This document shows, piece by piece, positions 44,646-45,894 of a stretch of 64,000 nucleotides of DNA. This DNA comes from Eledone cirrhosa. Its lineage: Eukaryota. How positions within the stretch are numbered: position 1 is the first letter of the stretch; the number at the start of each line of letters is the position of its first letter. The stretch spans positions 290,036,001 through 290,100,000 of the forward strand of contig OZ024741.1 in assembly GCA_964016885.1 (NCBI GenBank). Direction: 5' to 3'. A program made the translations under genes and the position numbers. The notes under the pieces are model-generated. The model did no database searches and had not been told where the DNA came from. It saw only the letters and a list, made by a program, of their open reading frames with translations.

Positions 44646-45105
44646 ATAACTTGTGTGTTACACCTCTATTCTTTTAACTATATATATATATATATATATA
44701 TATATATATATATATATATTTAAATATATATATATATATATATATATATATATATATATATATATATATATATATATATATATATATATATATATATATA
44801 TATATATATATAAAAACAAATAACGAAACGAAATTAAATTTCGTTTCGTTTGTAACTCACTTTTGTATGACTGACGCTTAAACAATTAAGTTAAAGATGT
44901 ACATCCATATATGTATACTGAAATACTAGTATGTATATGAATACACACACGTATACATATGTAGATGTACCAAGTTTTTTCACTGGTCACTTTACTGTGA
45001 GTGGCCAGCTATTCTGTATGTAAACACACAGACAAACCGGTTTTTAGAGTCATACTGGTTTTTGAGGAAACACCTTTCCTCTATTCTCCAGAAAGCCAGA
45101 CAAGG

Positions 45106-45150
45106 AATATTGAACTAGTTTCGTTGTTGTTACAACTCATCAGCAATATT
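45106..45150 (-). ncRNA. Type I hammerhead ribozyme, array B copy 1
   Basis: Minus: AATATTG-CTGATGA-GTTGT aaca ACAAC-GAAA-C TA GT-T-CAATATT; perfect 7-bp stem I. Confidence 0.92.
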
Positions 45151-45572
45151 TACCTATCTTCCGGCCTCTCTAGAGAATCGTAAAAGCACATATCGTTATA
45201 TGCTTTTTCTATGAAAATTAGTAGTGGGCAGACTAATTTGCATAGAGTGTGAGTAAGTACCGGTTCAACGGAGACGATAAAAACAAATAACGAAACGAAA
45301 TTAAATTTCGTTTCGTTTGTAACTCACTTTTGTATGTCTGACGCTTAAACAATTAAGTTAAAGATGTACATCCATATATGTATACTGAAATACTAGTATG
45401 TATATGAATACACACACGTATACATATGTAGATGTACCAAGTTTTTTCACTGGTCACTTTACTGTGAGTGGCCAGCTATTCTGTATGTAAACACACAGAC
45501 AAACCGGTTTTTAGAGTCATACTGGTTTTTGAGGAAACACCTTTCCTCTATTCTCCAGAAAGCCAGACAAGG

Positions 45573-45617
45573 AATATTGAACTAGTTTCGTTGTTGTTAC
45601 AACTCATCAGCAATATT
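45573..45617 (-). ncRNA. Hammerhead ribozyme, array B copy 2
   Basis: Identical to 45106-45150, shifted +467. Confidence 0.92.
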
Positions 45618-45894
45618 TACCTATCTTCCGGCCTCTCTAGAGAATCGTAAAAGCACATATCGTTATATGCTTTTTCTATGAAAATTAGTAGTGGGCAGAC
45701 TAATTTGCATAGAGTGTGAGTAAGTACCGGTTCAACGGAGACGATAAAAACAAATAACGAAACGAAATTAAATTTCGTTTCGTTTGTAACTCACTTTTGT
45801 ATGACTGACGCTTAAACAATTAAGTTAAAGATGTACATCCATATATGTATACTGAAATATATATATATATATATATATATATATATATATATAT

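Follow-up and report, generated by a model that had tools for sequence, protein, structure and literature searches.

Two hammerhead repeat arrays in Eledone cirrhosa belong to a very large retrozyme family with a host-type snRNA promoter motif and a Penelope-like insertion footprint

Our results indicate that two tandem arrays in the window, a stretch of 64,000 nucleotides of the Eledone cirrhosa genome (contig OZ024741.1, positions 290,036,001 to 290,100,000), are two branches of one very large family of non-LTR retrozymes. These subfamilies, A and B, probably carry a host-type snRNA promoter, are predicted to cut and circularise themselves, and are likely to be pasted into (TA)n tracts by Penelope machinery. 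The class is already known; the new features are two fixed 3' ends with a rule for their arrangement in insertion arms, and an snRNA promoter motif.

Array B occupies window positions 44810..45859 (minus strand) and consists of about 2.25-2.3 units of a 467-nt monomer (99% matches), the units differing at a single base. It is a single-armed insertion, with its 3' end at 44810 and a truncated 5' end at 45859, and it lies between (TA)n target tracts at 44679..44812 (3' junction) and 45857..45894 (5' junction). Array A, the sister family, fills 1..2669 (minus strand) with 5.7 units of 466 nt; it runs on for 543 bp beyond the window's first base, where its 3' end meets (TA)n. Neither array holds a frame of 150 aa or more, thus no protein coding was found.

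The two arrays are homologous, as the first-pass annotation had proposed. Blastn aligned them over 270/450 positions (60%, E 9e-17) and 268/425 positions (63%, E 3e-16), and this collinear alignment reaches far beyond the ribozyme core. Nine of the ten collinear conserved boxes listed in that annotation are present in both arrays as spelled there; the tenth, CTCACT.TT.GTATG, is exact in array A but is one base shorter in array B. Exact-pattern counts of ribozyme cores over the 3.0 Gb genome, which are lower bounds, gave at least 27,889 copies of family A and at least 9,420 of family B (control patterns 0), that is, over 37,000 copies of a predicted self-cutting repeat. In such numbers the units probably contribute much circular RNA, and many sites for promoter factors to bind, in this genome. 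They are short, low-GC tandem repeats, from dimers to multimers with some arrays at about 30 units, dispersed at high copy. We distinguished subfamilies B1 and B2 (88%) and A1, A2 and A3, with an A-B identity of 58-65%. The families also nest, since a two-armed B insertion lies beside or within an A copy at a (TA)n stretch (L006:921-2633). A 497-nt contig (467+30) fits a circle and a DNA tandem equally and was not counted as evidence.

The nearly equal unit lengths of the two arrays had been taken as a sign of selection on unit size. This does not hold: A monomers measure 418-538 nt and B monomers 461-470 nt, and sister families have units of 310-320 nt. The spread in A stems from an inner (TA)n tract and from indels, and because A units span such a range the match of 466 and 467 nt is a matter of chance.

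A type I hammerhead lies in every unit of both arrays, on the minus strand, and accounts for the stems listed earlier. In array B the first copy, with an extended stem I, lies at 45083..45178 (core 45113-45143) and the second at 45550..45645 (core 45580-45610), with predicted cuts between 45113 and 45112 (triplet GUU) and between 45580 and 45579. The array A cores lie at 234-264 + 466n, on the same strand. An Rfam scan of the window gave no match at or above a gathering score; the HH9 model, whose gathering score is 52 bits, reached 37.7 bits (E 1.2e-7). Self-cleavage is a prediction from the modelled fold. Cleavage by single ribozymes may be slow, given the U.U at the base of stem II in family A and the 2-bp stem III of both families; in 43/59 variants the first pair of stem I is an unpaired U.U. 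A recent preprint reports that only 1 of 9 tested frog elements cleaved (10.64898/2026.07.22.740005).

Compensatory change in the stems had been read as selection on RNA structure, and our analysis supports this. Comparing the commonest A variant, which is that of array A in the window, with the B variant of the window, we found 16 differences among the 53 gap-free columns, and stems hold 15 of these. Eight of the 17 pairs change, seven on both sides, and six of these are compensated; with randomly placed changes, six or more compensated pairs have a probability of 1.3e-4. The remaining doubly changed pair, omitted from the first-pass annotation, is U.U in A and G-C in B. In the larger family, taken as 59 distinct A/B variants of 61 (one frameshifted copy and one from another family were dropped), 88% of cells pair, compared with 31-48% in slid controls, and 90 cells are changed on both sides, compared with 34.7 in shuffles (0/500). 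Two measures robust to relatedness were no better than shuffles in these variants (137/500 and 410/500), because most changes trace to the single split between A and B; separate double changes number 7/112 pairs within A (13 clusters) and 6/145 pairs within B (6 clusters). The AACA loop, previously described as kept, varies across the family (AATA, AAGA, AATG).

Besides the covariation, both monomers fold strongly, into the same layout from different sequence. The linear monomers fold much more stably than shuffles, at z = -11.8 (B) and -8.75 (A), and so do the circular ones, at z -6.1 to -11.1, with 64-69% of bases paired. In the common layout a long stem I rod brings the two ends together; the rest is a multibranch body, a hairpin in the tail and a pair of hairpins ahead of the ribozyme. 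A reading of TGTAAACA as a Forkhead site was dropped, since in both A and B it forms a hairpin capped by UUUA.

Next, we mapped the insertion ends, numbering each unit from the predicted cut site. The 3' ends on the sense strand recur at two sites, proximal and distal, both abutting (TA)n: about 234 and 303 in B1, about 251-255 and 310 in A1, and 220 and 276 in A2. They enclose a tail of 55-70 nt, which in array B corresponds to 44810..44879 (minus strand), between unit positions 234 and 303. The box ACGATAAA, whose meaning went unnoticed in the first pass, marks a fixed insertion end. Genome-wide, at least 2,277 distal and at least 1,039 proximal B ends are joined to (TA)n. From the 2,277 distal loci we surveyed 39 in list order, skipping one known two-armed locus; two of the 39 are one duplicated insertion. 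A distal and a proximal arm stand head-to-head at 30/39 (26 by BLAST, four more by short flank or separate checks). Two others have a second arm cut elsewhere, which makes 32/39 two-armed in all, six are single-armed and one was unresolved. No distal+distal pair occurred among these 39 insertions. Most arms are longer than a cut linear monomer permits (31/35 distal, 23/26 proximal); they run through the ribozyme site, and therefore the template is a circle or an uncut multimer. The 5' ends are scattered: neither the predicted start (3 found, 3.1 expected) nor the cut site (3 found, 1.6 expected) is enriched in them, and the excess at unit positions 1-30 is not significant (7 vs 3.9, p 0.10).

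This footprint matches the tail-and-inversion signature of Penelope elements described in PMC8557442 and PMC11167929; in the latter, a purified element cut both strands and began at two internal sites. That insertions are dispersed in their thousands and end at two fixed 3' sites also bears out the earlier view that the repeats spread through RNA and are not a neutral satellite. We rejected a plain Pol III terminator as the explanation of the distal end, since A copies run past the T-run and a second end exists.

The box first given as GCAG.CTAATTTGCATA reads TATGCAAATTAG on the sense strand, and its extended form has 24,862 matches in the genome (control 1). The same 12-mer, with one change at most, stands at -77 to -80 in host genes that have a TATA near -30. 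We found it with TATA in three types of U6 promoter (7/15 loci), in 1/5 U6atac loci (the best match) and in both top matches of tRNA-Sec; the motif was then predicted for the RNase MRP gene and is present there. Upstream of U1 (15 loci), U2 (3 of 6 examined) and RNase P it is absent, and a different motif is found. The U6 and U6atac loci that are devoid of the motif may be interrupted or retroposed copies. As a by-product, the U6-class promoter of this animal is defined.

Some further observations concern these host genes. Upstream of the single RNase P RNA gene (about -70 and -288) there is a U1/U2-type motif, AAATCAGT, and no U6-class 12-mer; in this animal the gene may be transcribed by Pol II. 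A distal element, TTA(C/T)(C/T)TCCCTTG, lies upstream of U6, U1 and RNase P genes at -257 to -288; a similar string is the 3' strand of stem I in retrozyme family G (see below) and, more loosely, occurs in family C. A TATA-like stretch near -30 is present in the U1 and U2 genes as well, which sets them apart from the Pol II snRNA genes of vertebrates. Of 11 copies examined in a tandem U6 array, 6 have another repeat in place of the promoter motif, upstream of the TATA.

In array B the PSE-like 12-mer, the same as in host U6 and tRNA-Sec promoters, lies at 45233..45244 and 45700..45711, and a TATA-like element follows at 45196..45200 and 45663-45667, 44 bp past the start of the 12-mer; in array A the 12-mer is at 342-353 + 466n (all minus strand). 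Copies selected by the motif carry it by selection and were not counted as evidence. Among copies picked by their ribozyme, the 12-mer was found in 282/309 rows for the two main B keys and 97/108 rows for the main A key, rows in which overlapping loci are counted more than once; its offset is the same in nearly all of them. When the 12-mer was searched for together with a core, leaving out the continuation typical of A/B, 1,055 matches were obtained (control 1), which brought families C, D, E and F to light. When copies of C (1,196 matches) and D (94) were chosen by ribozyme alone, 17/30 and 7/20 had the 12-mer (controls 0). It precedes the ribozyme in at least six related families. By contrast, family G, with seven 310-bp units that carry a hammerhead and a TATA-like word (L300:946-2806), has no 12-mer match of 11/12 or better (0/20 rows).

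The 12-mer is also one strand of a hairpin, in array B the 5' strand (45233..45244, with its partner at 45210-45221), and both it and the TATA lie in predicted hairpins in all folded families. The partner strand varies between families while the 12-mer is constant. The distance from 12-mer to TATA is 43-45 bp in families A-E and 48 in F, with 47-49 bp in the host genes, and the spacer sequence is unrelated among the five families that keep 43-45 bp; one family E copy has no TATA by the pattern used. The conserved box is therefore a snRNA promoter motif at the DNA level and not only an RNA stem, which the first-pass annotation had missed, and together with the TATA it would, judging from these positions, work as a promoter in A and B.

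One could suppose that, in the same retrozyme, the 12-mer and TATA are RNA structure or the relic of a captured promoter, and that the RNA comes from host read-through. The hairpins in all folded families, the spacing off the host range, family G with no 12-mer and the lack of a 5'-end excess at the predicted start all fit this proposal. It is nonetheless improbable, since the 12-mer is constant across changes in its partner strand and shifts in the mismatched positions, 43-45 bp is kept over unrelated spacer in five families, and the 12-mer is oriented and placed to start transcription just ahead of the ribozyme. Against our preferred account stand the spacing of 43-45 bp, outside the 47-49 bp range of host Pol III genes, the host Pol II snRNA genes (U1, U2), which do not use the 12-mer, and the presence of the motif at only 7/15 U6 and 1/5 U6atac loci. 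Human U6 is reported to tolerate only a 2-nt deletion in this spacing (PMC11696126), and the shortening in A/B exceeds that tolerance, which also counts against it.

With the promoter reading, which we prefer, we propose a cycle in three steps. In step 1, SNAPc and TBP would bind the 12-mer and the TATA, and a transcript predicted to start 10-27 nt upstream of the core would read through several units. In step 2, the hammerheads would release monomers, with the long stem I, evident in the fold, holding the ends together; it is quite likely that ligation then gives a circle. In step 3, and as the footprint suggests, a Penelope GIY-YIG endonuclease would cut both (TA)n strands, and one cDNA would be made from each side, at the two internal sites flanking the 55-70 nt tail. 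By passing the ribozyme site and circling the template, these cDNAs would produce arms that are tandem, 5'-truncated and placed head-to-head. With the promoter inside the unit, each new multi-unit insertion could in turn serve as a source. Tentatively, a superfamily of at least six families may have captured a U6-class promoter of the host, shortened it by 4-5 bp and come to read through T-runs, each unit being a circuit of promoter, ribozyme and tail that is inserted by a Penelope dimer, with one cDNA per tail site and cut strand.

T5-T7 runs stop Pol III. Templates or inserted copies cross such runs in most clusters, and inserted A copies include bases beyond a T6-T7 run. We lean towards Pol II rather than Pol III, the latter being the less probable enzyme, because the templates hold these runs, because the spacing is 4-5 bp below that of host Pol III genes, and also because newt satellite 2 is cited in PMC2220036 as transcribed by Pol II from a snRNA promoter. 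In fly snRNA promoters the Pol II element occupies positions 30-37, and the TATA of Pol III promoters 34-41 (PMC1761439), the same 4-bp offset as the shortfall in the retrozymes; PMC11696126 questions whether spacing determines the polymerase. A true Pol III promoter, with rare read-through RNA or a long linear multimer and not a circle as the template, would keep steps 2 and 3 and differ only in polymerase and template form. It gains from the specificity of the 12-mer for host Pol III-type genes, from the TATA, which selects Pol III in vertebrates (PMC1761439, PMC11696126), from the distal end that follows a T-run in B, from family F at the host spacing, and from a lizard element whose main template was uncut RNA (PMC11167929). 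We consider it rather doubtful, given the passage of T-runs in most clusters and the A copies that extend beyond theirs.

The remaining explanations dispense with the retrozyme cycle altogether, and both are highly improbable. If A and B were a DNA satellite or a Helitron-like element that spread through unequal crossing-over or rolling-circle copying of DNA, the ribozyme being a passenger, arrays of about 30 units would be accommodated, and the preprint likewise explains the growth of arrays by unequal crossover (10.64898/2026.07.22.740005). Two fixed 3' ends with scattered 5' ends, a distal+proximal rule common to an RT-coding element and covariation across the whole fold speak against it; as a route of dispersal it is largely refuted, and it may account for the later growth of long arrays. 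An endogenised viroid-like RNA, replicating from RNA to RNA, would match the compact, highly paired circular fold. In A and B, though, each arm has the ribozyme in a single polarity, the antisense strand folds less stably, and a DNA promoter motif is conserved.

For the machinery of step 3, the window itself contains a 5'-truncated Penelope-like element (28375..30050, plus strand; first noted as a fragment at 28375-29586) with a GIY-YIG end, its own minimal hammerhead at 29793 and a distal 3' end on (TA)n. The family has 37,056 candidate places in the genome, and one copy elsewhere has an intact frame of 1,246 aa with RT motifs, a CX4CxxC linker and GIY-YIG. A Pfam search of this protein matched no family; we identified it by the visible RT and GIY-YIG motifs and by Atlas look-alikes at 0.96-0.98. 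Judged by PMC8557442, such a linker suggests the Neptune or Nematis type. The (TA)n-joined ends of the copies lie about 189 or about 249 nt past their own hammerhead core, and A and B share with this family the distal junction TAT|CGT. Between A/B and this family there is no significant sequence likeness (best E 0.078, on the wrong strand), and its pLTR region is devoid of the host snRNA promoter motif. At least two further Penelope families are present as fragments (26-58% to the first), and two of these further types have minimal hammerheads of their own. Because of the missing homology and these other families the element is only a candidate; that it is the partner of A and B is possible, on the strength of the shared junction and ends, though we would not presume it. 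No pLTR homology to an autonomous element was found for A and B against the one Penelope family tested, whereas 24/57 families of frog retrozymes are reported to have it.

Metazoan non-LTR retrozymes and their proposed Penelope helpers have been described (PMC7229834, Cervera and de la Pena 2020; 10.64898/2026.07.22.740005, Li et al. 2026). As characterised there, they have in common with A and B a type I hammerhead per unit, low-GC tandem repeats, no coding, a highly paired predicted circle and co-occurring Penelope elements. Axolotl, too, has two retrozyme families, and one of them bears a U.U at the base of stem II, as A does in contrast to B. The differences are that A/B units measure 418-538 nt against a typical 150-450, that the available text of these papers describes no internal promoter, (TA)n target or two fixed 3' ends, and that RNA and circles were shown for published retrozymes while A and B are known from DNA sequence alone. 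With Penelope-like elements (PMC8557442; PMC11167929), as far as those accounts go, A and B share a target of (TA)n or AT-rich sequence, a tail with an internal start site on either side, an inverted 5'-truncated second arm, tandem copies and a hammerhead upstream of the start sites. They differ in having no ORF (no RT and GIY-YIG), a full-length and not minimal hammerhead, a tail of 55-70 nt against 30-40, and the host snRNA promoter motif.

Compared with type 3 (U6-class) snRNA promoters, A and B have the same 12-mer on the same strand, the TATA, and an RNA element about 75-80 bp later. Their spacing is 4-5 bp shorter (43-45 vs 47-49 bp), the 3' half of the motif diverges, no TTACCTCCCTTG-type upstream element was seen by eye at the host distance, and the promoter lies inside the repeated unit. 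Of the marks of a type 3 Pol III promoter, the PSE match is found, whereas the TATA spacing differs and copies pass T5-T7 in place of a transcript end at the first T-run. Hammerhead repeats with an internal promoter are cited in PMC2220036, namely newt satellite 2 (Pol II, snRNA-type) and schistosome Sm-alpha (Pol III); in this comparison, made through that citation, A and B differ by their host U6-class motif with TATA, their shortened spacing and their phylum.

Our literature search, with most subscription papers and repeat databases outside its reach, returned no retrozyme or hammerhead satellite with a snRNA promoter or PSE. Its titles and abstracts included no cephalopod hammerhead or Penelope work on the A/B family; the supplements of the cited papers may list promoter or target features. 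The two papers on the class, in the parts available, leave open how retrozymes are transcribed and which enzyme moves them. A and B provide genome-scale footprints of both: they name a promoter motif and predict a start site, two exact RT start sites and a near-strict rule of one per arm. With an intact candidate helper protein in the same genome, the life cycle could be tested in vitro and the model of Penelope insertion sharpened.

Finally, the window holds other elements. By eye, we found a transposase frame at 10238-11866 (minus strand), which we take to be mariner-like, and a broken element with endonuclease and RT frames at 15047-18108 (minus strand), presumably a non-LTR retrotransposon. 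Just left of array B, a perfect 394-bp fold-back between (TA)n tracts (44250-44643) is probably another two-armed insertion. A 144-bp fold-back at 46206-46349 has a short hammerhead-like motif, and three more such motifs, from other families, lie at 34028, 23350 and 49849.
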